Part shown: piece by piece, positions 14,341 through 33,877 of the stretch | Position numbering within the stretch: position 1 is the first letter of the stretch | Layout: each line of letters opens with the position of its first letter | Source of the DNA: a virus | DNA length: 36,070 nucleotides | Virus genome (UHGV): UHGV-1528002 | Reading direction: 5' to 3' (one strand) | The notes under the pieces: generated by a model | Databases searched by the model: none | What the model saw: the letters and a program-made list of their open reading frames with translations, nothing else | What the model was told of the DNA's origin: nothing | Translations under genes and position numbers: made by a program

Positions 14341-14760
14341 TTACTTAATGGCATTAAATCCAGCGTTGATGGCTTCCGCAATATTGATGGCACTTGTTTT
14401 ATCGAAGTGCCCATTCTGAATAAGCGCCGCATGCAGGCATTGTAACTTCATGTTGTATAAGTGTTCGCTCATGTAATCATGATCACTTTTTGCTTTAGCG
14501 TAAACAGCGCGAGAAATATCAAACATATCGCCTTTTTCCATTTCAGAACGTTGTGCTGTTATCCAGTCATGGAACGTAACGCTAGTACCATGGTCTTCGC
14601 TAAGAGTTAACCCGGCCAGTCCCTCACTCTGAATTACTTCGTAATGCATTTCATTACCAGCAAAAACGCCATAAAAAACGCAGTCTTCAGCCTGAACGAT
14701 ACGAGAATATTTTAATGGCCATTCATTTAGATACTTAGCCAACATATCAATTGTCTTCAT
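14341..14760 (-). CDS. Hypothetical protein (inverted moron between terminase and portal)
   Basis: 139-aa ORF opposite to the flanking late genes; AAGGTGAG RBS directly after a terminator hairpin. Confidence 0.5.
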   Translation of the reverse strand: MKTIDMLAKYLNEWPLKYSRIVQAEDCVFYGVFAGNEMHYEVIQSEGLAGLTLSEDHGTSVTFHDWITAQRSEMEKGDMFDISRAVYAKAKSDHDYMSEHLYNMKLQCLHAALIQNGHFDKTSAINIAEAINAGFNAIK

Positions 14761-14770
14761 AATCTCACCT

Positions 14771-14797
14771 TAAAAAAATGCCCGGACGAACCGGGCG
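14771..14797 (-). terminator. Rho-independent terminator between the tRNA and the moron gene
   Basis: Minus strand GCCCGG-ttcgt-CCGGGC followed by TTTTTTT. Confidence 0.6.
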
Positions 14798-14870
14798 AAC
14801 TGGAAGCAATGAGTTCTGCCTTCCGTGGCTGTACTGGTTTACAGCATGAAGTCATCGCAATGGCGTCCTG

Positions 14871-14916
14871 CTGTAAAAAGGGCGGTGATAGTCCTTCAAG
14901 GGAAACCATCACCGCC
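14871..14916 (-). terminator. Terminator-like long hairpin downstream of the tRNA
   Basis: Minus strand 9-bp stem GGCGGTGAT...ATCACCGCC with 18-nt loop followed by CTTTTT. Confidence 0.4.
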
Positions 14917-14959
14917 AAGCACCTGGAACTTCTGGCATCACGGTCCTTAGGCGTGATTC

Positions 14960-15036
14960 TGGCGTGGCATGCAGGATTCGAACCTGCGACCAACCGCTTA
15001 GAAGGCGGTTGCTCTGTCCAACTGAGCTAATGCCAC
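14960..15036 (-). tRNA. tRNA-Arg, anticodon UCU, CCA encoded
   Basis: Minus strand folds as a cloverleaf: acceptor GTGGCAT/ATGCCAC, D-stem GCTC/GAGC, anticodon stem ACCGC/GCGGT with loop CTTCTAA, T-arm GCAGG-TTCGAATC-CTGC, discriminator G plus CCA. Confidence 0.85.
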
Positions 15037-15358
15037 AACGCTGAGAGCACTTAGCCTGTTAAGGCGCCACACTTTGTCGCGGCTCCATAAATGCTCTCAT
15101 CGTTGTACCCTCGTCTCTTCCGAGGCGTCACACCGAATCGCCGGGATGGTGAATCCCCGTGCGCGGAATAAAACCGCTCGACTTGCACATTCCGGCTACC
15201 TGGTTCGTTTGCCCGAGCAAGGGAGGGTGCCCCTTAAACGTATCCAGACCGCTATCGGCGCATGTGCCATACGCCGTACTGCTCAAAATAAAAGCTCACT
15301 CCACCTGTTCAATTTAACGACAAGCCAGTCATGTTAGTAACCGGAATGAACTCTTTGG

Positions 15359-15373
15359 TTACCTCAAAGGTAA
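15359..15373. promoter_or_regulatory. Operator palindrome TTACCTCAAAGGTAA
   Basis: Exact consensus copy in the 427-bp non-coding region between the tRNA and the gp6.7-like gene; minus-strand flank AATTAT-TACCT as at PL. Confidence 0.45.
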
Positions 15374-15463
15374 TAATTCGCGCATTAAATGTCAACTGCC
15401 TACGATAAATAAATCATATGTGGTTAAATTGGTAATAATTTAATTGCGTACGGAGTCATTGAT

Positions 15464-15670
15464 ATGTGCATGGGTAGCTCACCATCAGTGCCTGCAACAC
15501 CAGAAGTTCAGGCAGCACCACAGGAGCAGGATGCCGCCGTTGTTGATGCCCGCGACGAAGAAACTCGTCGCCGTCGCGCTGCTGCTGGTCGTAGTTCTAC
15601 GCTGCTTACCGGTTCTCAGGGCGACACATCAACCGCTAAGACCAGCGGTAAAACGCTGCTTGGTCAGTAA
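15464..15670 (+). CDS. Small virion protein resembling T7 gp6.7
   Basis: 68 aa starting MC, Ser/Thr/Ala-rich with basic C-terminus; sits directly upstream of the portal gene as in T7. Confidence 0.5.
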   Translation: MCMGSSPSVPATPEVQAAPQEQDAAVVDARDEETRRRRAAAGRSSTLLTGSQGDTSTAKTSGKTLLGQ

Positions 15671-19846: not shown

Positions 19847-20191
19847 GTGATATCGATGTCAGGTGAGAAACCAAGATACCGCGTTCTGCGCCTCTCTCAT
19901 ATCCATAACACACTGTGGCCGGAGGGGGCAGAAATCGAATACGAAGGTGAGCCTGGTAGCGCACTGGAACCTGTTAACGATGCAGCCAGACAGGCAAAAG
20001 CAAAAGTTGCAGGAAAGGTGTCAATGGCAGCAACCAGCACCAAAATCATCAACGATGTGTCAGATGATGGTGAACTGGATAAGCTCCGTGAAGAGTACGA
20101 ATTGCTCTTTAACGAGAAGCCACACCATAACGCCAAAGCTGAAACGCTCCGCGAGAAGATCGCAGATAAGCGTAAAGAACTGGGCGTGTAA
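19847..20191 (+). CDS. Hypothetical protein
   Basis: 114-aa ORF in the late operon, followed by a terminator. Confidence 0.45.
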   Translation: MISMSGEKPRYRVLRLSHIHNTLWPEGAEIEYEGEPGSALEPVNDAARQAKAKVAGKVSMAATSTKIINDVSDDGELDKLREEYELLFNEKPHHNAKAETLREKIADKRKELGV

Positions 20192-20208
20192 GCCTCGCGA
20201 ATCAGACA

Positions 20209-20229
20209 AGGGGCTTCGGCCCCTTTATT
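20209..20229 (+). terminator. Rho-independent terminator after the capsid gene block
   Basis: AGGGGC-ttcg-GCCCCT followed by TTATT; same position as the terminator after gene 10 in T7. Confidence 0.65.
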
Positions 20230-20235
20230 GCAGGA

Positions 20236-20565
20236 GTGTATATGGAACTCGTAAACCTCAAAACCGGCACTGACAGCTACCAGGATGAGAGCGGAGAAAC
20301 CAGAACTCGCGATGAATACCCGTGGGGGCTGTGCATCACGCTGAATAACGACACATTGAATAAGCTGAAGGCGCAACCTCAGGGCGTCGGAACAGAAGTG
20401 ATGATAACTGCGAAGGCTGTTATTCGAGGCCTGTCTGCCAGAGAAACTGACGATGGTGTTAATCGCAGCGCCGATCTGCAGATCACTGATATGGCAATCG
20501 CTCCTGTTTCCGGTGATGTAGAAAAATCAGCGGCTGAAACCCTCTACGGTAACGGGGGTGAGTGA
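20236..20565 (+). CDS. Hypothetical structural protein
   Basis: 109-aa ORF, ATGA overlap with the downstream tail gene. Confidence 0.45.
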   Translation: MYMELVNLKTGTDSYQDESGETRTRDEYPWGLCITLNNDTLNKLKAQPQGVGTEVMITAKAVIRGLSARETDDGVNRSADLQITDMAIAPVSGDVEKSAAETLYGNGGE

Positions 20566-21170
20566 TGGCCTCTGTAGTAGAGATCTGTAATCGTGCGCTG
20601 TCCAATATTGGCAACAGCCGCAGCATTAACAGCCTGACGGAAGCCAGCAAGGAAGCGGGGGAATGTTCGCTGCATTTTGAGGCCTGTCGTGATGCTGTGC
20701 TTTCTGATTTTGACTGGAACTTTGCTACAAAACGCGTGGCGCTTGCAGATACGAGCAATCCACCGCCTGACTGGGAATATGCGTACCAGTACCCTTCCGA
20801 TTGTCTGCGCATTACTGAAATTATGCTTCCTGGTGTACGCAATCCAACAGCAGCAATGCGTGTTCAGTACGAAGTTGGTGCAGACACCAACGGAACAGGA
20901 AAATTGATCTACACAGACCAGCCGCAGGCATGGCTTAAGTATGTCTCTCGCGTTACAGATGTGAACATGTTTGATGCCATTTTTATGGAGGCGCTGGCCT
21001 GGCGTCTTGCGGCAGCTATTAACATGGCGCTGACTGGGAATGCAGACCTCGGTACGTTTGCCCTCAATATGTACAATCGCGTGATTCTTAGTGCTGGCTC
21101 GCATAGCCAGAATGAATCACAGGAACCACAGCCACCGGTTGATGAGTTTACCATTGCGAGGTTGTCCTGA
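20562..21170 (+). CDS. Tail tubular protein A (T7 gp11-like)
   Basis: 202 aa; N-terminal EICNRALSNIGNSRSINSLTEAS parallels T7 gp11 (VNDILASIGEPPVSTLEG); position before a roughly 820-aa tail protein. Confidence 0.5.
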   Translation: MMASVVEICNRALSNIGNSRSINSLTEASKEAGECSLHFEACRDAVLSDFDWNFATKRVALADTSNPPPDWEYAYQYPSDCLRITEIMLPGVRNPTAAMRVQYEVGADTNGTGKLIYTDQPQAWLKYVSRVTDVNMFDAIFMEALAWRLAAAINMALTGNADLGTFALNMYNRVILSAGSHSQNESQEPQPPVDEFTIARLS

Positions 21171-23641
21171 TGGCTATCAGTTGGATCCAGCCCAGCTTTG
21201 CCGGTGGTGAGATTGGACCGTCGTTGTACGGTCGTATCGACATGGCGAAGTACCAGGTGGCATTGCGCAAGTGCGATAACTTTATCGTGCGGCAGTATGG
21301 CGGCGTTGAGAATCGACCTGGTACGCGTTTTGTCGGTGCCGCCAAATACCCAAATCGGAAATGCCGCCTGATCCCGTTCCAGTTCTCGACGGTTCAGACC
21401 TATGCTCTGGAGTTCGGGCACCAGTACATGCGCGTTATCAAAGATGGTGCGTTGGTGCTGAACAGCAGCAATGTTATTTATGAAATTGCCACGCCATATA
21501 CTGAAGCCGATCTGTTCCGAATTAAATTTACGCAAAGCGCCGACGTGCTTACGCTGGTTCACCCGGCATACCCGCCGAAAGAGTTGCGCCGCTATGCGCA
21601 TGACAACTGGCAACTGGTTGATGTGGTAACGAAGAACGGGCCATTTGAAGATATCAATATTGACGAGTCAGTGACGGTTTATGCCAGCGCCAGCACCGGG
21701 ACAATTACGTTAACAGCAAGCGCCTCTATTTTTGGCGCGGAGCAGGTAGGCAAATTGTTCTATCTGGAACAGCCTGCAGTGGATTCAGTGCCGGTATGGG
21801 AAACCAGTAAGAGTACGTCGATTGGCGATATTCGCCGTGCAGACAGTAACTACTATCGCGCCGTTACAGCAGGCAAAACAGGCACTTTGCGCCCTTCGCA
21901 TACAGAAGGCACATCATGGGATGGCTGGGGCGGATCCGGTGATGATGATACTGGCATTGAGTGGGAATATCTGCACAGTGGTTTTGGCATTGCCCGTATC
22001 ACTGCTGCAAATGGAACTACTGCAACTGCCGAGGTGATTTCCTATATCCCTTCGCAGGTCGTTGGCGAGGATAATGCCAGCTATAAATGGGCTAAATATG
22101 CCTGGAACAGTGTTAATGGTTATCCTGGCACTGTTGTTTATTATCAACAACGTCTTTACTTCGCCGCATCGACTGCGTTCCCTCAGACTATCTGGGCCAG
22201 CCGTACCGGGGATTATAAGGATTTTGGCAAAAGCAATCCTACGCAGGATGACGACAGAATTATCTACACCTATGCCGGGCGTCAGGTTAATGAGATCCGC
22301 CACCTGATTGATGTCGGTTCGCTGGTGGCACTGACTTCCGGAGGTGAGTACGTCATCACCGGCGACCAGAACAAAGTGTTAACCCCATCATCATTTGCAT
22401 TCAGCTCTCAGGGATCAAATGGCTCGAGCAATGTCCCACCAATTGCTGTGGCGAATATTGCTCTGTTCGTCCAGGAGAAAGGCAGCGTTGTCCGTGATCT
22501 GGCCTACTCATTCGATGTTGACGGCTATCAGGGGAACGACCTGACCATCCTTGCCAATCATCTTTTTCAGAAGCACAGCATTGTTGACTGGTGCTTCTCG
22601 ATTGTCCCTTACTCCAGCGCCTTCTGCATTCGTGATGACGGTAAATTACTGGTGATGACCTATTTGCGTGATCAGCAGGTTTTTGCATGGGCACCACAGT
22701 CCAGTACCGGAAAATATGAAAGCACATGCAGTATCAGCGAAGGCAATGAAGATGCGGTGTATTTCGTCGTTAACCGAACCGTTAACGGGCAAGCAGTGAG
22801 ATACATCGAGAGACTGTCCAGCCGTTTATTTACCAGCGATGAAGACGCTTTCTTTGTTGATTCTGGCCTTAGCTATGATGGAAGAAATACGTCTGACAGA
22901 ACGATGATCATCACTGGTGGTTCTGGTGAATGGGATTACCGCGCGGAATATACAATCAGTGTTTCTGGTGGTGCGTACTTCACCAGTAGTGATGTCGGTG
23001 CGCAACTACAGTTCCCTTATGCCGGAACTGATCCTGATACTGGCGATGAAGTGTCAAAAGAATTACGTTGCGACATTATTTCTGTAACCAGCAATACCGC
23101 TGTAGTGGTTCGTCCTAACAGGAACGTCCCGCCATCCCTCAGGAATGTGGCCACCACGAACTGGCAGATGGCGCGCCGGGCATTTGGCGGCTTGTCTCAT
23201 CTTGAAGGTCAGACCGTAAACATTCTCTCTGATGCGAACGTGGAACCACAGAAAGTGGTTTCCGGAGGTGCCGTCACGCTGGAATCTCCGGGGGCTGTAG
23301 TGCACATCGGCCTGCCAATAACTGCTGAATTCGAAACACTGGATATCAACATTAACGGACAGGAAACGCTGCTGGACAAAAAACAGGTGATCCCCTCCGT
23401 TACTCTGGTTGTGAATGCCAGTCGCGGCATCTGGGCGACTACGCCCGGCGGTAAATGGTACGAATATCCACAGCGTGAATTCGAGTTCTACGATGATCCT
23501 GTTGATGATGCTACCGGAAAAGTAGAAGTGAAACTGGACAGTAACTGGGGCAAAAACGGACGTGTAAAAATCCGTCAGCTTGACCCGTTGCCGCTGTCTG
23601 TTCTTGCCGTTATTCCTCGCCTTACTGTTGGGGGATTCTGA
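21170..23641 (+). CDS. Tail tubular protein B (T7 gp12-like)
   Basis: 823 aa, size and position as T7 gp12; weak N-terminal resemblance. Confidence 0.55.
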   Translation: MAISWIQPSFAGGEIGPSLYGRIDMAKYQVALRKCDNFIVRQYGGVENRPGTRFVGAAKYPNRKCRLIPFQFSTVQTYALEFGHQYMRVIKDGALVLNSSNVIYEIATPYTEADLFRIKFTQSADVLTLVHPAYPPKELRRYAHDNWQLVDVVTKNGPFEDINIDESVTVYASASTGTITLTASASIFGAEQVGKLFYLEQPAVDSVPVWETSKSTSIGDIRRADSNYYRAVTAGKTGTLRPSHTEGTSWDGWGGSGDDDTGIEWEYLHSGFGIARITAANGTTATAEVISYIPSQVVGEDNASYKWAKYAWNSVNGYPGTVVYYQQRLYFAASTAFPQTIWASRTGDYKDFGKSNPTQDDDRIIYTYAGRQVNEIRHLIDVGSLVALTSGGEYVITGDQNKVLTPSSFAFSSQGSNGSSNVPPIAVANIALFVQEKGSVVRDLAYSFDVDGYQGNDLTILANHLFQKHSIVDWCFSIVPYSSAFCIRDDGKLLVMTYLRDQQVFAWAPQSSTGKYESTCSISEGNEDAVYFVVNRTVNGQAVRYIERLSSRLFTSDEDAFFVDSGLSYDGRNTSDRTMIITGGSGEWDYRAEYTISVSGGAYFTSSDVGAQLQFPYAGTDPDTGDEVSKELRCDIISVTSNTAVVVRPNRNVPPSLRNVATTNWQMARRAFGGLSHLEGQTVNILSDANVEPQKVVSGGAVTLESPGAVVHIGLPITAEFETLDININGQETLLDKKQVIPSVTLVVNASRGIWATTPGGKWYEYPQREFEFYDDPVDDATGKVEVKLDSNWGKNGRVKIRQLDPLPLSVLAVIPRLTVGGF

Positions 23642-24105
23642 TGATTGACGTTCAAATTATTCCCGCTACCGAAGAGCATCTTCAGATGATTTTGCCGGAT
23701 GTTCGTCAGGCTGATATTGACGAACTGTATGCGGTATCGCTGATGACTACCGAAGATGCGCTGCGTGTTGGTCTTCGCACTGCGACTATGGCCTGGTCAG
23801 GATTTGCGAACGGAGAACTGGTAACCATGTTTGGCGTATCTCCGGCGTCAATGATCGGTGGCAATGGTACGCCCTGGCTGGTAGGAACCAGCCGTATTGA
23901 AAAATATCAGAAGACATTTCTTCGCCACTGCCGCCCTGTATTGCAGCAGATGCTGGCAGTTTATCCGCGCCTGGAAAACTACGTCGACGAGCGAAACCAT
24001 GTTGCCAAAGCATGGCTGCACTGGCTTGGATTCAGGCTTGAAGAAGCCGCGCCTTATGGTGCTCTTGGTCTTAATTTCCACAGATTTCACATGGAGAGAA
24101 AATAA
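23641..24105 (+). CDS. Putative internal virion protein (T7 gp13-like position)
   Basis: 154 aa between tail tube B and a gp14-like gene; assignment by position only. Confidence 0.4.
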   Translation: MIDVQIIPATEEHLQMILPDVRQADIDELYAVSLMTTEDALRVGLRTATMAWSGFANGELVTMFGVSPASMIGGNGTPWLVGTSRIEKYQKTFLRHCRPVLQQMLAVYPRLENYVDERNHVAKAWLHWLGFRLEEAAPYGALGLNFHRFHMERK

Positions 24106-24671
24106 TGTGTAACCCAGCCATCGCTTTGGTTGCCGTCACAGTGGCATCCACAGCCGCGTCAATGTACAGCCAGAGCAAGCAGGCAAAATACCAGTCAGCC
24201 ATAGCTGATCGGAATGCTGAAATTGCTGAAGCTCAGGCACAGGATTCAATCAATCGTGGGAATATTGAAGCGGATCAGCGTCGTCGTGAAATGCGTCAAC
24301 GCTCAGGTACTGCGGCGGCCACTATGGGGGCTACCGGTGCGGAATTAAGTAGCGGAACAGCTCTTGACGTTTTTGCGGATAATGCTCAGTTCGGCACTCT
24401 TGATGCGTTAACGACAGTGAATAATGCTCAGCGTGAGGCATATGGGTATCAGGTTCAGGGAATGAATGCTCAGGCACAGGGGGCTGCTGCTCAGTCGGCT
24501 GCTAAATCATCGATGACCAGCACTTTGTTAACGGCACCACTAAAAGCGTACGGTGCATATAAGTTGGGTGGCGGAAGTATCAATCCGATTAGTAAGCAAG
24601 GAAACACGCCAATGTTATCTAACTCAGGTTTTATGAATTCTGACTCCCGATTCAAAATAGGAGGTTACTGA
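24105..24671 (+). CDS. Internal virion protein B-like (T7 gp14-like)
   Basis: 188 aa starting MC, Ala/Gln/Ser-rich like T7 gp14. Confidence 0.5.
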   Translation: MCNPAIALVAVTVASTAASMYSQSKQAKYQSAIADRNAEIAEAQAQDSINRGNIEADQRRREMRQRSGTAAATMGATGAELSSGTALDVFADNAQFGTLDALTTVNNAQREAYGYQVQGMNAQAQGAAAQSAAKSSMTSTLLTAPLKAYGAYKLGGGSINPISKQGNTPMLSNSGFMNSDSRFKIGGY

Positions 24672-27292
24672 TGCCTGTTGTTCCTACTACATCCGGCCGC
24701 CAGGTGCAAAGTCGTGGTGTGCAAACCGGTGGTTTTCAGACCTTCGATGTTCCTCAAGCAGGTCAGGTGCTGGCGAATGTCGCAGATCAGTATGCGGTGG
24801 CATATGGTGAAGCCAGGCAGAAAGAGAATGTTGCTATGGTTCAGGAGGCATCCCTTAAACTCAGTCAGACAGGCAGCGATCTGCTGAATAACCCTGAAAC
24901 AGGTTTGCTTAACCTGAAAGGGAAAAATGCTATTGGAAAAGGTCAGGAGTATACGCAGCAGTTTGATGCTCAGGTCGAACAACTGGCTATGTCGCTGCCG
25001 GATGAACAGGCTCGTAATGCTTTCATGCAGCAGGCGCAGCAGCAGCGCATTCAGTTCACTACGCAGGCCGGGAGGTACGAAATAGGACAGGTTCGCCAGT
25101 ATGAGGCGGATATGCAGGATGCGACACTAAAAAACCTATCGATGCAGTTCCGTAACCCGACAATGGCAAACCAGGCAGGATTGAAGGCATATCATAGCAT
25201 CATCGCTTACGGCGAAGCCCACGGCCAGAGTCAGGAAGAGATTGAACAGAACTGGGTTTCGTGGCGCGAGAATGCCGCGAACGGTGCGGCGGAGGCGTGG
25301 TATGTGCCGATGTATCAACAGATGATGGGTCCGAACGGCAAGATTGAGGTAACCGATACACCGAGTGAGGCGCAGTTATTCTCTGCAATAATCTGGCAGG
25401 AGAGTGGCGGAAATCAGTACGGAAAGGACGGAACACCTCTGGTGTCGCCAAAAGGCGCTGTTGGCGTAGCGCAGGTGACGGAAGATACTGGCCCCGAAGC
25501 TGCCCGCCTTGCTGGCGTGCCGTGGGACCGAGATAAATGGTTGAATGACCCGCGCTATAATGCCCGCTTGGGGCAAGCTTATTTCGGCGCGCAGATGAAG
25601 AAATACGACAATAACCCGGTTCTGGCAGTAGCTGCCTATAACGCTGGCCCAGGAAAGGTTGACGGCTGGATTAAACAGATTGGCGATCCGCGCACAGGCG
25701 AAGTCAGTAACGCCCAGTTTGCCGCAGCTATCCCATACGACGAGACGCGCAATTATGTGGCAAAAGTAACTGGCAGTGCTGGAGCTATTCCTGGATCTGC
25801 GACGATGGAAAACCTCATCGCACAGCCATTCTGGAACGCCATGAGTCCGGACAAAAAGTCGCAGATGATGAGCAAGGTTGCTGGCATGTACGACATGCAG
25901 GCTTCAGCCGGTCGCGTTGCGCTACAGAGTCGAATGCAGGACGACCTATCCAAAATTGAGGCCGGTAAGCAGGTGACGCCTATTTCAGCGCACGAATGGG
26001 CCGCCGTTATGCCGCTTCAGGCAGCGCCTGCCGAGCGCCTGCAGATGGAAAAAACCTTCCAGCAATACCAGCAGGCAATGACGCTACAACCTGTTTATCA
26101 GACCATTATGCAGGGCAACGTCCAGCAAGGTACCGCCGCCGTGCAGGCAATGGCACCGCAGGAAAACGACTCTGACTTTAAATACAAAGCAGAGCTTTAT
26201 GCATCGGCAAAGGTCAAGCTTGGGCAGGTACTGAAGGCGCGGGAAGCGGATCCGGGGGCATGGCTGCAACAAAACTCTCCGGTTGTGCAGGCTGCATTCC
26301 AGCAGTACCTGAATGACCCTTCATCTGGTGAATACCTAGTTTCCCGCATACAGTCTGAAAAAGACCGCCTGGGGATAATGAGCAAAAAAGTTTTACCGGA
26401 GTCCATGGTCAACGACGTACTGCAGCGTATTGACAACACGCAGGAATCTAGCGTAAAGGCCATTCAGTCGGTGGCGCAGTCGTTCGGCAAATACTCGGAT
26501 CAGGTGATGCGGCAGGTGCAAAATAAAGCATTCCCAGCTTTAAAGGTTGTAATGTCTACAGAAAACCAACGGGCAGCAGATGCGTTGTGGCAAATACGGA
26601 ATGTACCTACTTCTGATTTGAGATCTGGTTTGGATAAAAACCAGGCAGACAGTGCAGACTCATCGTGGACAGATCAATTTAAAGATTTTTCTTCAACTCT
26701 TATTCCTCAGAGAAATGGTGCTGAAAACTGGACTATTTATAACGAGCAGGGAAAACGCTTGACCTACAACTACATGCAGCGCGGAATGTCGGCGTCTGAT
26801 GCAGCAAAACAGGCGTATCAGGACCTTCTCGGCGAGCAGTACCAGACCAATGGCACTTGGCGGCTACCTAATCGTGCAGGGGTAGATATTCGTGACGTTA
26901 ACGATGGTGCCAATGCGTATCTGAAAAACCTGTCAGCAGATCAGATTATGCCGCTTATTGGTGACCCAAGGCTACCTGATGAGGTCAACCGTGAGCAGAG
27001 TATCTCCCGCATTCGTGATAATGCGCAGTGGGTTACCAACAGCGACGAAACAGGACTTACCCTGATGCTCAACGGGCTGATCGTCAACGGTGCCGACGGC
27101 AACCCGATTACGGTGCCGTTCAACGATCTGGCGAAACTGGGAACAACCAACCGATCAGTATGGAACCGCATTACCAAGTTCATTGATACTCCGGTGAAAT
27201 ATACTCCCGGACAGTCTAAGGAATACAGCGCAGAAAGTCAGCGCGACAACCTGATTAACATTTTCCAGAACGGCCAGCAATCAGGACGATAA
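24671..27292 (+). CDS. Internal virion/ejection protein with lytic transglycosylase domain
   Basis: 873 aa; central IIWQESGGNQ...GAVGVAQV...AVAAYNAGPGKV is the SLT catalytic-domain pattern. Confidence 0.75.
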   Translation: MPVVPTTSGRQVQSRGVQTGGFQTFDVPQAGQVLANVADQYAVAYGEARQKENVAMVQEASLKLSQTGSDLLNNPETGLLNLKGKNAIGKGQEYTQQFDAQVEQLAMSLPDEQARNAFMQQAQQQRIQFTTQAGRYEIGQVRQYEADMQDATLKNLSMQFRNPTMANQAGLKAYHSIIAYGEAHGQSQEEIEQNWVSWRENAANGAAEAWYVPMYQQMMGPNGKIEVTDTPSEAQLFSAIIWQESGGNQYGKDGTPLVSPKGAVGVAQVTEDTGPEAARLAGVPWDRDKWLNDPRYNARLGQAYFGAQMKKYDNNPVLAVAAYNAGPGKVDGWIKQIGDPRTGEVSNAQFAAAIPYDETRNYVAKVTGSAGAIPGSATMENLIAQPFWNAMSPDKKSQMMSKVAGMYDMQASAGRVALQSRMQDDLSKIEAGKQVTPISAHEWAAVMPLQAAPAERLQMEKTFQQYQQAMTLQPVYQTIMQGNVQQGTAAVQAMAPQENDSDFKYKAELYASAKVKLGQVLKAREADPGAWLQQNSPVVQAAFQQYLNDPSSGEYLVSRIQSEKDRLGIMSKKVLPESMVNDVLQRIDNTQESSVKAIQSVAQSFGKYSDQVMRQVQNKAFPALKVVMSTENQRAADALWQIRNVPTSDLRSGLDKNQADSADSSWTDQFKDFSSTLIPQRNGAENWTIYNEQGKRLTYNYMQRGMSASDAAKQAYQDLLGEQYQTNGTWRLPNRAGVDIRDVNDGANAYLKNLSADQIMPLIGDPRLPDEVNREQSISRIRDNAQWVTNSDETGLTLMLNGLIVNGADGNPITVPFNDLAKLGTTNRSVWNRITKFIDTPVKYTPGQSKEYSAESQRDNLINIFQNGQQSGR

Positions 27293-27293
27293 C

Positions 27294-28991
27294 ATGCCAA
27301 TTTACACAGATGATCCGGGACAGGGCATTAACCAGCCAATTGGCAACGCGCCAGCAGGGCTTGGCGAATCGCTGCTTTCTTCCCTTAAGCAGGGATTTGA
27401 AGAGGGGCCGGTCATGTCCGGCTACCGCTTTGCGCAGGCCGACTCGCTGGCGAATGACCCAAACTCTACAGTTATCAGTAAGCAGGACGCAGATGAGCTC
27501 CTGAAGCAGTACGGCGTAAAGAGCATAAACGTGCCAGATTCTGGCGTTACGCAGGCTTTTCTCGATCATGTTATTGCCGAACGCAAAGATTCTCTGGCAC
27601 GCCAGCAGATTGCGATGTCGGCACCGAGCGGGTGGGTAGCCACGCCGCTTAATTTCGCAGCCAGCCTAGCTGGTTCAATGGCAGATCCTGGTAACGTGGC
27701 GCTGGCGCTGGTTCCGTTCGCTGGAGAAGCAAAGGCAGCTTCTGTGCTTGGCCGATTTGGCGAGCGATTTGTTGCTGGTGCACGCATGGGGGCAGCGCAG
27801 GCGGTGGTGACCGTGCCGCTTACCGGGCTGGCAGCGGCGGCGGAAGGTGACGACTTCACCTATAGCAACGCGTTGGAAAGTACTTTCTTTAACACGATGG
27901 CTGGCGGTCTAATGCATGCCGGCGGCGGCCTTATCGCCGATATCGTGCGACCGCGTCGCGTTCCCGATGCTGCAACGGGAGAGTCCCCGGCGTTTTCTGG
28001 CGATGCGCAGCCAACCCCGGTGATAACGCCTGACAACATTCCGGCGGGCGTGAATATCCCTGAGGTTGGCGCTAACGCAGATCTGGCGGCGGCCATTTCC
28101 AGTGAAGCGGAGAGCTACGCATACAGCCGGGCTTATGACGACGTGGTTCCTGACTATATGGCGCGCCAGCAGGAGTTACAGAGCGGGCAGATCGGTAACG
28201 TTGCCGACCTGCGTGCCGAGCTTGCGGCTAATCAACGTCATGCTGACTCGCTTGATGCGACGCTGCAACAGCGCACCAAAAAGTATCAGGGGAAGCGGAT
28301 GAAGTTTAAGGATGCGCGCTCTAGGGCACTGAAAGAGATTCAGGCCGAGAAAGACGCCATCGCTGCACGCAATCAGGAGATCAATACATCGCTGGAGCAG
28401 AACGCGACAGCAGAGCAGGCGCGCTGGCGCCAGTCTCAGATTTCCCGCGGCGAGATCCCCGACGACCTGAAAGTCACCATTTCCGAGCGTGCGCAGCAGA
28501 TCCTGGACGGCATGCAGATGTCGCCGGTCGCTGGCGCAGTTCGCACTGCCGCAAGCGCCATCAGGGATGCTGACTGGAACGTGAACCAGCAGGCGTATCG
28601 CGCTGCGCTGGCACACATGATGGAAGGACGTAGCCCAGATGTTGAGCCCTTCTATGAACTGCACAAACCAGCACTGCGTGAACGCGCCATCCATCGCATA
28701 CAGAACCCGGCACGGCAGGTTGATGAAACGGCTCGCCCAGCAAGCGAAACAGCCGATCGGGTTTATCAAGAAACGCAAAAGGCAGATCATGAAATTACCG
28801 CTGCCGCTGCAGACCTTGATAACGAGCTCAACCTGAGTAACGCCCTGCTTGACGATATCGCTGTCGATAACCCTGATCTTGCGACCACGTTGCGCCAGAA
28901 ACTCAATGATATTCGTGCCGACGCCAGCGACAATAGCATGAGCAACGCTTTCCGGGCATTTGCCGCCTGTATGATTAACCGGGGGATGTGA
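27294..28991 (+). CDS. Internal virion/ejection protein
   Basis: 565 aa, Ala-rich with a hydrophobic segment; position within the ejection-protein block. Confidence 0.5.
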   Translation: MPIYTDDPGQGINQPIGNAPAGLGESLLSSLKQGFEEGPVMSGYRFAQADSLANDPNSTVISKQDADELLKQYGVKSINVPDSGVTQAFLDHVIAERKDSLARQQIAMSAPSGWVATPLNFAASLAGSMADPGNVALALVPFAGEAKAASVLGRFGERFVAGARMGAAQAVVTVPLTGLAAAAEGDDFTYSNALESTFFNTMAGGLMHAGGGLIADIVRPRRVPDAATGESPAFSGDAQPTPVITPDNIPAGVNIPEVGANADLAAAISSEAESYAYSRAYDDVVPDYMARQQELQSGQIGNVADLRAELAANQRHADSLDATLQQRTKKYQGKRMKFKDARSRALKEIQAEKDAIAARNQEINTSLEQNATAEQARWRQSQISRGEIPDDLKVTISERAQQILDGMQMSPVAGAVRTAASAIRDADWNVNQQAYRAALAHMMEGRSPDVEPFYELHKPALRERAIHRIQNPARQVDETARPASETADRVYQETQKADHEITAAAADLDNELNLSNALLDDIAVDNPDLATTLRQKLNDIRADASDNSMSNAFRAFAACMINRGM

Positions 28992-31171
28992 TGGCAGCAA
29001 ACGAATTTTTGACGCAGTGCGAGCGCAGTGTAAATGCTGCCGCTGGTCGCGAGCTTTCTTCCGATGAGATGGAGTCGCTGGTGCGTGACATGAACGACAC
29101 CACTAGGCGAATTCTGGCGACCAATGAGGCGCTGTCTCTGGAAGAGGCCGCGATGCGCGCAGCGGAAGAACTGAGCAATGCCGATATGCTGGCAAAACAG
29201 ATTGAGGCTCGCAATAAGGCAATCAACGCCCGTATTGCCGCACAACGACTTAGAGAGCTTCGTACTATCTGGAAAGACCGCCCGGATATCGGGCTTGAAG
29301 CAATGCTGGTTGGCCGCAACGATGCGCGTATCGGCGCCCGCCGGTCGGTATCTTCGGAGGTGGCGCAACTGCGCGGCAAGTATCATTCCGGTATCAACTA
29401 CGATTTTGACCGTGCCGGGCTGGTGCAATTCATCGCCAGCGGCAGCAATGACCGGGAAATTGCCGATGCAATGTGGCGCATAGGGCGCGGGCAGTCAACT
29501 GACGGTATGACAAAGCAATCCGTAAGCGCTGCACAAATCATCATGAAATGGCAGGAAACTGCGCGTATTGATGAGAACCGCGCCGGGGCATGGATACGCA
29601 AAGAGCCGGGCTATATAGTGCGCCAGTCACACGACATCATGAAGATCCGCGCCGCAGGTTATGAAGCATGGCGAAATGCTATTCTCCCGCGCCTTGATGA
29701 GCGCACTTTTGACGGCGTGGCTGACCGCGAGCAGTTCATGCGTAACATTTATAACGGGCTGGCTTCCGGCGTGCATCTTACATCTGAAAAGCCCGATTGG
29801 ATGAATGGCTTTAAGGGATCGGCGAACGCAGCTAAACGCGCCAGCCAAGAGCGAATTTTGCACTTCAAAGATGGTATCTCGTGGCACGAGTACAACCAGC
29901 AATTCGGCACCGGCAGCCTGCGAGAAGCGCTGTTTGGTGGCTTAAACAGCGCTGCCCGCACAACGGGCATGATGCGCGTACTGGGCACTAACCCACAGAA
30001 CATGTTTAAGTACCTGACGGACACCATTGCTGAAGATATCAGCAAATCCGGAAGACCGGCAGCGTTGGCTGACTACATGACGAAGGTGCGTCGCATTAAC
30101 CGTACCGTAATGCCGCAGGTTGACGGCTCGCTAAATATTCCTGGCAGCGTAGGCTGGGCCAATGCGTCGGCGGCTGTACGCGGCTGGTTGCGTATGAGCC
30201 AGCTTGGTGGCGCGGTAATCTCATCGTTTAACGACGTGCCTATCGCCGCTACCGAGATGCGCTACCAAGGGCAGAATTTTATGCAGGCGTTGCTTGGTGC
30301 TATGAGAGGCCGCTTCACGCGTTACAACAGCGCGGAGCAGAAAGAGATCCTTTCCTCTAAGGGGATCAAGCCAACGCAGCGCGCTATCGCTGACGCACGC
30401 GATCAATTGGAAGGGCAGTTGCGCGGCTACATCCTTGACCGCCTGAATATCGCCATGTCAGAGCCTGGCGATCGCACGCAGGCGTTTATGAAGATGGGTA
30501 CGGTGCCAGGAACGGTGGCTGGGGAAGCAATACGATTCGCTGGTCAGTACAAATCGTTCACTGCAAGCTTCATGCAGAACGTGCTAGGACGCGAAGTATT
30601 CGGGCGTGGTTATATTCCTGCTGGGCTTGGTGAGTCGAAAACCGGATCGCTGACGAATGCGCTGCTACGTAACGGGAAGGGGGCTTTCCTTGGCGCTGCA
30701 AACCTCTTTGTCTGGGCGACTATGTTTGGTTATATCTCCATGCAGTCAAAACTCATGCTGAAAGGGCAAACACCACGCCCGGCAGATGCCAAGACGTTTC
30801 TCGCAGCCGCATCTCAGGGGGGCGGTCTTGGCATCTTGGGTGACTTCATGTTTGGCGAAGTCAATCGCATGGGGGCCGGGCCGGTTACGTCGCTAATGGG
30901 GCCGGCAGCATCGAACGCTGACAGCATTATCACGCTGCTCCAGCAGACCACGAGAGGGGATGCAGATTTGGGTGACTGGTATCGCACGGCACTTGACAAT
31001 ACGCCATTCCTCAACGTGTTCTGGCTTCGTACGGCGATGAATGGTTTAATATTGAACCGGATACAAGATGCCCTTGACCCAGGCTCTCTTGAGCGTTATC
31101 AGCGCCGTGTTGAGCGTGAGCAGGGTAACGAATTTCTGATCCCACCATCGCAGTTCATGCTAGGGAAGTAA
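28988..31171 (+). CDS. Internal virion/ejection protein (large)
   Basis: 727 aa, last large gene before the accessory island; ATGA overlap with the upstream gene. Confidence 0.5.
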   Translation: MMAANEFLTQCERSVNAAAGRELSSDEMESLVRDMNDTTRRILATNEALSLEEAAMRAAEELSNADMLAKQIEARNKAINARIAAQRLRELRTIWKDRPDIGLEAMLVGRNDARIGARRSVSSEVAQLRGKYHSGINYDFDRAGLVQFIASGSNDREIADAMWRIGRGQSTDGMTKQSVSAAQIIMKWQETARIDENRAGAWIRKEPGYIVRQSHDIMKIRAAGYEAWRNAILPRLDERTFDGVADREQFMRNIYNGLASGVHLTSEKPDWMNGFKGSANAAKRASQERILHFKDGISWHEYNQQFGTGSLREALFGGLNSAARTTGMMRVLGTNPQNMFKYLTDTIAEDISKSGRPAALADYMTKVRRINRTVMPQVDGSLNIPGSVGWANASAAVRGWLRMSQLGGAVISSFNDVPIAATEMRYQGQNFMQALLGAMRGRFTRYNSAEQKEILSSKGIKPTQRAIADARDQLEGQLRGYILDRLNIAMSEPGDRTQAFMKMGTVPGTVAGEAIRFAGQYKSFTASFMQNVLGREVFGRGYIPAGLGESKTGSLTNALLRNGKGAFLGAANLFVWATMFGYISMQSKLMLKGQTPRPADAKTFLAAASQGGGLGILGDFMFGEVNRMGAGPVTSLMGPAASNADSIITLLQQTTRGDADLGDWYRTALDNTPFLNVFWLRTAMNGLILNRIQDALDPGSLERYQRRVEREQGNEFLIPPSQFMLGK

Positions 31172-31172
31172 T

Positions 31173-31544
31173 ATGAACAGAATTATATTAATGATTATTC
31201 TTATGCTTTTAGTTGTAAAATCTTTTGCAGATACTACCTCACCGTTAATGATTCAGCCTAAAAATGGGGAAACACTGGAGGATTCTAAAAAGCATACAAT
31301 GGAATATTTTGGATGTATAAAAGGGCAGGCCGTAAAATACGCTAAGACAGGAGAAAGTGTTGATTCTATATCCAAAGCTTCGGTTGTGTCATGCGAGTCG
31401 TACATACAAAAGATTGCTGAATCAAATATATACTATTTAAATTCCTCTCAAGACGGTAAGCGGAAATTTATTGGAAGGCTTAAATCAGATGGTGAAAATT
31501 TAGCAACAAAATTTGCTATGGATGAAAAGCTAAAAAATAAATAG
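31173..31544 (+). CDS. Small secreted protein (signal peptide, 2 Cys), AT-rich moron
   Basis: N-terminal hydrophobic signal MNRIILMIILMLLVVKSFA then polar mature region; very AT-rich codon usage; starts 1 nt after the ejection-protein stop. Confidence 0.5.
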   Translation: MNRIILMIILMLLVVKSFADTTSPLMIQPKNGETLEDSKKHTMEYFGCIKGQAVKYAKTGESVDSISKASVVSCESYIQKIAESNIYYLNSSQDGKRKFIGRLKSDGENLATKFAMDEKLKNK

Positions 31545-31552
31545 GTGACTAC

Positions 31553-31849
31553 ATGCAAGCGATAGGATTCATTGTTTATATCGTCGTTGGTCTTTTTCAG
31601 TTGGCAGCAATTATGGCTGGGCTTGAATCATGGTGGGGATTGCACTGGATAATTGCAGCCCCCATTGCTTTCATCGTGAGCTATATTCCATTTGTTGGAG
31701 CGATTGTTGGTATGGTTGGCGCTGTGGATGTATGGCGGTGGGAGTGGTGGCAGGCTGGCCTTCTCTTCTTTGGTGGGATCATCTTTGCTATTGTCTGCGG
31801 TGGAATGTCATCATTTTTCGAATGGCTATCATTCAGAAAAAGAGTGTGA
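31553..31849 (+). CDS. Small integral membrane protein (3 predicted TM helices)
   Basis: 98 aa with three hydrophobic stretches and a basic C-terminus (FRKRV); AGGTGA RBS. Confidence 0.5.
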   Translation: MQAIGFIVYIVVGLFQLAAIMAGLESWWGLHWIIAAPIAFIVSYIPFVGAIVGMVGAVDVWRWEWWQAGLLFFGGIIFAIVCGGMSSFFEWLSFRKRV

Positions 31850-31858
31850 CATGTCACA
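31845..31858. repeat. Palindrome TGTGACATGTCACA, copy 3
   Basis: Perfect 14-bp palindrome overlapping the stop codon of the membrane-protein gene. Confidence 0.7.
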
Positions 31859-31883
31859 GGCCGCTTTCGCGGCCTTGTTTTTT
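31859..31883 (+). terminator. Rho-independent terminator ending the rightward late/accessory operon
   Basis: GGCCGC-tttc-GCGGCC followed by TTGTTTTTT. Confidence 0.65.
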
Positions 31884-32043
31884 AACGAATGCCACCGCCG
31901 CCCGGGCGGGAATCCGCAGAACGCCCACCGCAGCGGGAGCCGTCAGCGGCAGTATCGCTGTCGTGCTGACAACGACCGGCAAAGGCCTGAGTTGAAGCTA
32001 CCAGAGACAACAAAACGAACAGTGCAGCAAATGCTTTTTTCAT
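31882..32043 (-). CDS. Small secreted peptide (53 aa precursor)
   Basis: MKKAFAALFVLLSLVASTQAFA signal peptide with AxA site, about 31-aa mature part with 2 Cys; own TTGACG-16-TATAGA promoter-like region at 32050-32080. Confidence 0.4.
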   Translation of the reverse strand: MKKAFAALFVLLSLVASTQAFAGRCQHDSDTAADGSRCGGRSADSRPGGGGIR

Positions 32044-33606: not shown

Positions 33607-33762
33607 GGCAATCACCTTTTAGTATGGTTAATCACCACCTGAGGTGCAAATCTCGTTGGTGGTGAGACGTACAGGGTTTGCACTACCGGCTAAAAGGACC
33701 CGGCGCACCTTTCGGTGCCCCTGCACGTCCCACCATAATTCTGGCATGACTGTGCTATACGC

Positions 33763-33784
33763 ATAAAAAAACCACGTCTGGCGT
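33763..33784 (-). terminator. Terminator-like hairpin inside the antirepressor 5' leader
   Basis: Minus strand CCACG-ccaga-CGTGG followed by TTTTTTT, about 160 nt upstream of the antirepressor start. Confidence 0.45.
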
Positions 33785-33877
33785 GGTATGCGCCTTTTAG
33801 TAATCCGGGGTGCAAATCCCGGCACTGGATTTTGCCAGTGCTCAATTACTATGGCACAAGAGGAGTGCGATGTAAAT

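Follow-up and report, generated by a model that had tools for sequence, protein, structure and literature searches.

Among the structured RNAs described in phages, the closest counterpart to the element reported here is the put RNA of phage HK022, which is ~70 nt long, folds into two stem-loops, is present on both PL and PR, binds the zinc-binding domain of the RNA polymerase beta′ subunit and suppresses termination in cis. The present analysis concerns the 36,070-nt virus genome UHGV-1528002 (the window), a phage of the phiV10/epsilon15-like type (Uetakevirus), and a conserved structured RNA (the core) of ~175 nt located at positions 15278-15104 on its minus strand. Like put, the core is a structured phage RNA placed promoter-proximally in a repressor-controlled early operon, with terminators downstream and with no recognizable N-like protein among the first PL-operon genes of the lambdoid carriers checked. 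It differs from put in its length (150-180 nt), in its architecture of four helices plus a pseudoknot, and in being single-copy, and it is also found in non-lambdoid phages, unlike the put elements taken for comparison. Homology to put was rejected, as the covariance model of the core (model R1) gave no match at E ≤ 10 in positions 20000-32000 of HK022, the immunity region that contains putL and putR, and the binding and antitermination properties of put would apply to the core by analogy. A likeness also exists to the large non-coding RNAs ROOL and GOLLD and to phage tRNA arrays, as structured RNAs of phages and prophages that are often adjacent to tRNA genes. However, the core has no Rfam match to ROOL or GOLLD and is far smaller than these; as far as detected it is confined to Enterobacterales, and most copies lie away from any tRNA.

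The original prediction for positions 15037-15463 had listed a structured RNA among the possible contents of the region, together with a promoter for a leftward tRNA cassette and a late promoter for the head genes, and had proposed scans of RNA structure and covariance. Comparative analysis revealed a conserved, covarying fold at 15104-15278 which, as a pseudoknotted minus-strand element belonging to a large family, supports the structured-RNA option strongly and goes well past what had been envisaged. The core was matched by model R1 with 148.5 bits (E = 9e-39), and it is, with little doubt, a structured RNA transcribed from the operator-covered leftward promoter described below. BLAST comparison of 15037-15360 matched window positions 15090-15277 at 70-83% identity in unrelated temperate phages, the flanks not being conserved, and in the alignments invariant blocks alternate with variable, compensating segments. 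On the minus strand, helix P1 (15276-15269 with 15263-15256) carries a GGCAC loop, and P2 (15248-15244 with 15203-15199) encloses a variable P3 whose loop retains a CCUU motif. Then follow the near-invariant 19-mer GGUAGCCGGAAUGUGCAAG (15200-15182), unpaired in the supported structure, and P5 (15157-15154 with 15146-15143), with a 7-nt YUCACCA loop, a portion of which (15151-15148) pairs downstream with 15134-15131 in an H-type pseudoknot. The last helix, P6 (15125-15121 with 15113-15109), has a GAAGAGA loop.

Covariation was examined in 27 sequences of less than 93% identity over 28 pairs in five helices (P1, P2, P5, P6 and the pseudoknot), with shuffled and slid controls. The helices were 96.4% paired over the 27 sequences, in comparison with 29-48% in the slid controls, and two-sided changes were present at 11 pairs, a level reached in none of 500 shuffles (7.7 ± 1.0). 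Compensatory changes in the core thus exceed both types of control, as in a generic structured non-coding RNA. The pseudoknot, followed over ~160 copies, was either CACC/GGUG or AACC/GGUU and never mixed, with the switch occurring in at least three different P5 backgrounds. Among 125 copies gathered through an independent 5′ motif, about five differed from the 19-mer, by one base each. The G-U pairs of the core, some of them fixed or nearly so (U31-G88 in 27/27 and U8-G18 in 26/27 sequences), would be A-C mismatches on the plus strand, and for this reason the RNA was assigned to the minus strand, on which the fold is also stronger (z = −3.9 vs −2.4). The length of family members ranges from 149 to 181 nt without keeping to multiples of three, and none of the reading frames is open in all 27 of them, indicating that the core is not protein-coding.

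The helices of the core are local and sequential, with no stem joining its 5′ and 3′ ends; a closing helix between the two flanks was sought over 48 flank pairs and rejected, as no consistent register was found. P4 was likewise discarded as a conserved hairpin, since it corresponds to a variable linker of 18-28 nt that is unstructured in some members, and an extension of P2 (G27-C92 / C28-G91) lacked support because G91A variants are uncompensated. A long-range helix proposed by RNAalifold, GCACAU/AUGUGC, competes with P1, which covaries; the alternative helix is invariant and, as it never varies, has no support from covariation.

A search of Rfam 15 over positions 14700-15500, at gathering score and at E ≤ 10, returned only the tRNA and a chance-level match over the core to ceN46, a nematode small nucleolar RNA (12.7 bits, where the gathering score is 50; E = 8.3; on the opposite strand), and no family covered the core in 20 other loci. 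A literature search for the 19-mer or for descriptions of such an RNA, with partial coverage of subscription journals, retrieved nothing. The Pas small RNAs were dismissed as an equivalent, being located elsewhere, in the late region. These searches indicate that the core is a previously uncatalogued RNA family.

The lambdoid carriers detected by BLAST include cdtI, mEp460, mEp390, 2H10 and Stx2c/Stx2a phages, and other carriers are P1, P7, D6, SJ46, Klebsiella and Enterobacter phages, and a phage recorded on Stenotrophomonas. The core is therefore common to epsilon15-like podoviruses, lambdoid siphoviruses, P1-like phage-plasmids and a Lastavirus. It was found in 1840 of 5426 complete Escherichia coli genomes, at 2471 places and up to four per genome, with no annotated feature beneath it among the genome matches listed. 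It was also present in 591 plasmid records from Escherichia, Salmonella, Klebsiella and Shigella, mostly non-mobilizable and of ~90-100 kb, as is typical of P1-like phage-plasmids. Scanning one genome per species with a 17-mer, and checking the matches with model R1, resulted in 23 true copies out of 54 matches; 22 of the 23 were in Enterobacterales, with carriers that include Citrobacter, Kosakonia, Klebsiella, Kluyvera, Enterobacter, Erwinia, Phytobacter and Buttiauxella. The remaining 31 matches (Bacteroidales, Chloroflexota and others) were unconfirmed by the model and were discarded as chance. The twenty-third copy, which is full-scoring (156 bits), was observed in a 1753-bp contig binned as a Bacillota metagenome-assembled genome (L187), which is probably a mis-binned enterobacterial contig or contamination. 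Model R1 finds exactly one copy in the window and one per carrier phage, on the leftward/PL side only, and no copy in the K-12 prophage CPS-53 despite its sharing the downstream genes yfdP-yfdR. In a few public records, coding sequences (CDSs) for hypothetical proteins overlap these elements: mEp460_037 covers the core fully, mEp390 gp36 covers its 3′ part, and phiV10 p04 overlaps the tRNA (CDS coordinates: L001 2434-2802, L010 1842-2084, L003 2517-2768). These CDSs are probably spurious.

Analysis of the sequence upstream of the core revealed the repressor operator TTACCTCAAAGGTAA at 15359-15373, an exact match to the palindrome TTACC-N5-GGTAA whose epsilon15 equivalent is annotated as repressor-binding. 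The window contains 11 exact copies of this palindrome, against 0.60 expected, and 15 copies with at most one mismatch, numbers reached in 0 of 100 shuffles; this excess identifies the palindrome as a dispersed operator and confirms the operator copy reported in the original prediction. Other copies lie at 136, 5158, 5220, 5932, 5980, 6317, 8263, 8325, 12150, 12168, 32834, 33878, 33971 and 35091, scattered over early and late regions in a manner similar to the multi-site repressor control of P1, and epsilon15 annotates seven such sites. A −35 hexamer TTGACA (15395-15390, minus strand) was identified by direct reading and by its conserved layout, and a −10 hexamer TACCTT (15372-15367, minus strand) lies within the operator, at a spacing of 17 nt counted from the sequence. 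The operator covers this −10 and the putative start site, which would be near 15360. The arrangement TTGACA-17 nt-TACCTT-operator recurs in SPN1S (L011) and in two unrelated prophage contigs (L092 and L111). With hexamers inside the 16-18 nt range and an operator over the −10 and start, these features predict, from sequence, a sigma-70 promoter under repressor control, in agreement with the proposal of a promoter for the leftward tRNA cassette. The PL-like AATTAT flank that had been pointed out there does accompany a leftward promoter, but it sits in the spacer and is not one of the hexamers. A generic promoter scan misses this promoter because its −10 matches the consensus at only 3 of 6 positions.

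Upstream of the −35, an AT-rich element at 15417-15436 is conserved in SPN1S and contains a single operator half-site (TTACCAATTTAACCA on the minus strand). It had been described as a degenerate promoter-operator module, a description that a lone half-site does not sustain; epsilon15 annotates an IHF site overlapping the operator and just downstream of it, and the element may be an IHF or UP-type site rather than a second module. As for the third suggestion, a late promoter for the head genes, neither the promoter scan nor direct reading of the gap between the flanking genes gave a convincing rightward sigma-70 match, and in the epsilon15 record the equivalent gap lies inside a plus-strand unit running from terminase to head genes without an annotated promoter. 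In the window this gap comprises 703 bp (14761-15463), is flanked by terminase and head genes, both on the plus strand, and shares 98% identity with Escherichia phage phiV10 (Uetakevirus, epsilon15-like) and with many E. coli prophages. No credible open reading frame (ORF) was found in 15037-15463, as anticipated: the longest is an 87-aa frame starting with TTG, and none is open throughout the homologues. The adjoining tRNA-Arg(UCU) gene was verified by ARAGORN at 14960-15036 on the minus strand (Rfam tRNA, 73.3 bits), as a co-transcribed cargo of the leftward unit.

The position of the core in other phages follows a similar pattern, being almost always a short way past an early promoter under repressor control. 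In lambdoid phages it heads the early-left operon, where the cI terminator and a PL-like promoter with its operators immediately precede it. In P1, SJ46 and D6 it follows tRNA-Ile(CAU), in P1 inside the ban operon, and among P1-like phages its association with the tRNA block is kept even though different genes lie downstream. In SopranoGao it is located after a terminator and has its own promoter. A stringent promoter motif was present within 170 nt upstream of the core in 50 of 93 distinct contexts (54%, vs 1.7% of control windows; median leader 48 nt), and an intrinsic terminator on the same strand within 500 nt downstream in 32 of 76 (42%, vs 6% of controls; median distance 285 nt), the contexts of both tests not being phylogenetically independent. 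The core has no terminator of its own and is always co-oriented with a downstream cargo (tRNA, ban in P1, small ORFs) at variable distance. Adjacency to tRNA is not constant, as it would be for a tRNA leader: over 136 loci, tRNA-Arg lies downstream in 29 (Uetakevirus) and tRNA-Ile upstream in 19 (P1 group), and none is found within 450 nt in 88. SfIV and Lys8385Vzw have homologous PL leaders, with the same terminator and downstream genes, in which the core is absent.

In the window, the order of elements on the minus strand is promoter/operator, hairpin A, core, hairpin B, tRNA-Arg and two intrinsic terminators, T1 and T2, and the leftward promoter would yield an untranslated modular RNA of ~480-590 nt. 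Hairpin A (15360-15279, minus strand; −22.6 kcal/mol, z = −2.05) forms the 5′ leader and is Y-shaped with a long basal stem; homologous modules with the motif GUCGUUAAAU occur in Tyrion, PAT1, a Klebsiella phage and epsilon15, whose record places a plus-strand RNase III "mRNA processing" site in this region. Hairpin B (15106-15037, minus strand; −31.6 kcal/mol, z = −4.55) is also Y-shaped, with a basal stem of ~16 bp (CAACGAUGAGAGCAUU / AGUGCUCUCAGCGUUG), and terminates exactly at the 5′ end, the first base, of tRNA-Arg. Hairpin B has conserved counterparts in cdtI and mEp460, and compensating variants are found downstream of the core at many loci. Such Y-hairpins constitute a recurring module, with a ~16-bp basal stem CAAC..GAGAGC / GCUCUC..GUUG, compensating variants such as GAAAGCGCAC / GUGCGCUUUC and variable tips, which lies on both sides of the core (15037-15106 and 15279-15360) and elsewhere in leaders, e.g., in L077 past its terminator. 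These hairpins may be RNase III sites.

Terminator T1 (14916-14881 plus U-tract, 14873-14916, minus strand) consists of a 14-bp stem followed by CUUUUU (−22.8 kcal/mol, z = −5.0). Its loop bears the motif UUCCCUUGA, the same as in P3, and its ends (GGCGGU...ACCGCCCUUUUUACA) resemble those of a terminator in the cdtI leader. T2 (14796-14780 plus 7 U, 14773-14796, minus strand) has the structure GCCCGG-UUCGU-CCGGGC. A conserved 139-aa gene (phrog_4846; 14341-14760, minus strand) follows, its ribosome-binding site and then its ATG beginning 3 nt past T2, and as T2 abuts this ribosome-binding site, ORF 14760-14341 would be expressible only by read-through of T2; the arrangement of T2 followed by the gene is kept in epsilon15. 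A deletion in epsilon15 (L005 1432-1560) fuses the P3 loop of the core to the T1 loop, with loss of the rest of the core and of tRNA-Arg, and apparently arose between two copies of the loop motif UUCCCUUGAUGCU. A third leader module was observed in lambdoid phages (L002 2400-2520, minus strand; L204 1870-2005; L203 1874-1997). It is closed by GUUGUGGUG...CACCACAAC and takes the position of tRNA-Arg, and it is followed by a conserved terminator and then by another hairpin of ~20 bp just before a yfdP-like gene.

With lambda nut sites and rrn-type boxA leaders the core shares its position in the early-left leader, and P6, a 5-bp hairpin with a purine-rich loop, recalls boxB. A lambda-type nut site, defined by boxA (CGCTCTTA or TGCTCTTTAACAA) followed by a boxB hairpin with N downstream, was rejected: boxA GCTCTTWA is absent from 14761-15463, and no N-like family was detected in the downstream ORFs. 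The PL leader of SfIV, in which the core is absent, contains an rrn-type boxA GCTCTTTAACAA preceded by a hairpin (L203 1040-1075). Three loci (L040, L053 and L096) carry both core and boxA, and in L053 the core looks degenerate, with mutations in the P5 loop and P6. The RfaH-dependent ops/JUMPStart sequence is, like the core, an invariant element in the untranslated leader of horizontally acquired operons, and the ops consensus GGCGGTAGnnTG shares GGTAGC with the region of the 19-mer. The core was nevertheless rejected as an ops element, as 15182-15210 contains no match to GGCGGTAGnnTG with up to two mismatches. The bases 5′ of GGUAG covary within P2, which argues for selection on this region at the RNA level.

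Altogether, we favour, at a probability of about 0.4, the reading of the core as a leader RNA acting in cis to render RNA polymerase resistant to termination, put-like in function but not in ancestry. According to this proposal, 15037-15463 would constitute the head of a leftward, repressor-controlled early transcription unit. The nascent core would fold behind RNA polymerase and act in cis on the elongation complex, either directly or via a conserved host factor, and the modified polymerase would transcribe through the long untranslated leader and the subsequent terminators, as with HK022 put RNA. This reading is favoured because the core is promoter-proximal, without its own terminator or closing stem and co-oriented with variable cargo, because terminators are enriched downstream and T2 abuts a gene start, and because the checked lambdoid carriers have no recognizable N. 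In addition, local and sequential helices with no closing stem fit co-transcriptional action better than an autonomous stable RNA. Early antitermination in an N-less lambdoid phage has been reported as unexplained, with a put-like mechanism only guessed (PMC12315714).

Several observations weigh against an antiterminating role. Each phage has one core copy, serving one operon only, whereas HK022 has both putL and putR. Otherwise homologous PL leaders differ in whether they contain the core, and as SfIV and Lys8385Vzw lack it and keep the terminator, either this terminator is passed without the core or another module does the job. Furthermore, epsilon15 remains viable despite having lost the tRNA and the greater part of the core; this viability and the polymorphism among leaders suggest that the core is accessory. 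No strong terminator lies between the core and ban in P1, some loci hold both the core and an rrn-type boxA, and the pair of strong terminators in tandem downstream of the tRNA may be no more than the end of a unit that produces only RNA. The relatedness of the contexts in the promoter and terminator tests also counts here. A broader version of the cis-acting proposal is more doubtful: the core might represent a second, independently evolved class of protein-free RNA that makes E. coli RNA polymerase, or a conserved elongation factor, ignore terminators. This class would be common to P1, Stx2c-converting, cdtI-type lambdoid and epsilon15-like phages, moving behind early promoters as a modular "RNA cassette" in which the core is combined with processing hairpins, a cargo of tRNA or other RNA, and a terminator.

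The same set of observations can be read in terms of an RNA acting in trans, the principal alternative and a possibility to be taken seriously that we would not expect to prevail. The core would then be an early "RNA moron", cut from the leader, that targets a conserved host protein or a defence factor in lytic growth by binding or sequestering it; in an equally tentative part of the model, RNase III would cut at hairpins A and B, and RNase P or RNase E at the adjoining tRNA, to release the core. Its behaviour as a discrete module that moves among unrelated phages and occupies only some of a set of homologous leaders fits this model. So does its linkage to RNA cargo, namely tRNA-Arg in 29 loci, tRNA-Ile in 19 and the tRNA block of P1-like phages, as do the long flanking hairpins, which resemble the RNase III sites annotated in epsilon15, with hairpin B ending at the RNase P site of the tRNA. 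The terminator that closes the unit has, moreover, conserved ends in the window and cdtI, and the single-stranded 19-mer stays invariant even in copies gathered via an independent motif, suggesting contact with a conserved partner. The trans model is weakened by the occurrence of the core directly in the plain 5′ untranslated region of a protein-coding gene, without the flanking hairpin B, in P1 (ban) and L077. The lack of a terminator or closing stem in the core itself, and flanks that are not conserved in all contexts, point in the same direction. An effect in cis on the RNA, with the core as a 5′ stabilizer or processing scaffold setting the half-life or maturation of the tRNA or downstream mRNA, is improbable. 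It would account for the location near the transcript 5′ end, the tRNA adjacency in two phage groups and flanking hairpins that look like RNase III substrates, but known 5′ stabilizers are far simpler than a pseudoknotted RNA of 150-180 nt that contains a near-invariant 19-mer, and for 88 of the 136 copies there is no tRNA within 450 nt.

A 5′-leader RNA with a conserved, pseudoknotted fold, followed by terminators and with two possible competing helices (P1 and GCACAU/AUGUGC), also brings to mind a riboswitch, or another attenuator sensing a ligand or temperature, that would control the early-left operon. We regard this as quite unlikely, as there is no adjoining expression platform: the nearest terminator comes 95-462 nt after P6 with unrelated modules in between, the 3′ flanks are unrelated between contexts, and the alternative helix has no covariation behind it. 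Still less probable is a plus-strand function, with the structure serving for RNase III processing of a late terminase-to-head mRNA. Late plus-strand transcription must indeed cross the gap, where epsilon15 annotates a plus-strand "mRNA processing" site, but this annotation spans hairpin A and not the core, which is mostly missing from epsilon15. The frequent G-U pairs and the difference in fold z-scores between strands argue against it as well, and in the lambdoid, P1-like and Lastavirus contexts all neighbouring genes and promoters are co-oriented with the minus-strand reading. Finally, the existence of hypothetical CDSs over the core in a few records (mEp460_037, mEp390 gp36), and of an 87-aa ORF in the window, could be taken to mean that the region is plain spacer, a tRNA leader or a small protein-coding gene. 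This explanation is scarcely credible for a sequence conserved at 70-83% across unrelated phages whose flanks are not, with compensatory covariation, lengths of 149-181 nt in non-triplet steps and no frame open in all members; the conservation and covariation exclude the possibility, mentioned in the original prediction, that the region is simply spacer.

Provided that the family has indeed not been described before, an elaborate and unannotated RNA is carried by a third of the sequenced E. coli genomes, by classic model phages such as P1 and by medically relevant Stx2c prophages. From its fixed place, the core would be the first element transcribed from repressor-controlled early promoters, which suggests a role at the lysis-lysogeny switch. 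Modification of RNA polymerase by the core would explain how N-less lambdoid phages pass early terminators, and would be the second natural case of RNA-only antitermination after put; if it works in trans, the core would be a candidate for an RNA involved in host takeover or anti-defence. For annotators, the family is also a reason to drop several spurious "hypothetical protein" calls.

Other small RNAs were recorded at these loci. The C4 and isrK RNAs of P1/P7-type immunity regions are, like the core, small structured regulatory RNAs of phages, located at different loci and with different folds, and C4 works by antisense pairing on ant/icd leaders. Rfam matches to this pair of P1/P7-type antirepressor control RNAs were obtained on the minus strand of the window, at 33655-33740 for C4 antisense RNA (77.8 bits) and at 33765-33841 for isrK (67.4 bits), and the same pair is present in cdtI and mEp460. 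In Enterobacter phage Tyrion (L006 450-514), an Rfam match to the int-alpA RNA (44 bits) lies near the terminase end of the equivalent gap.

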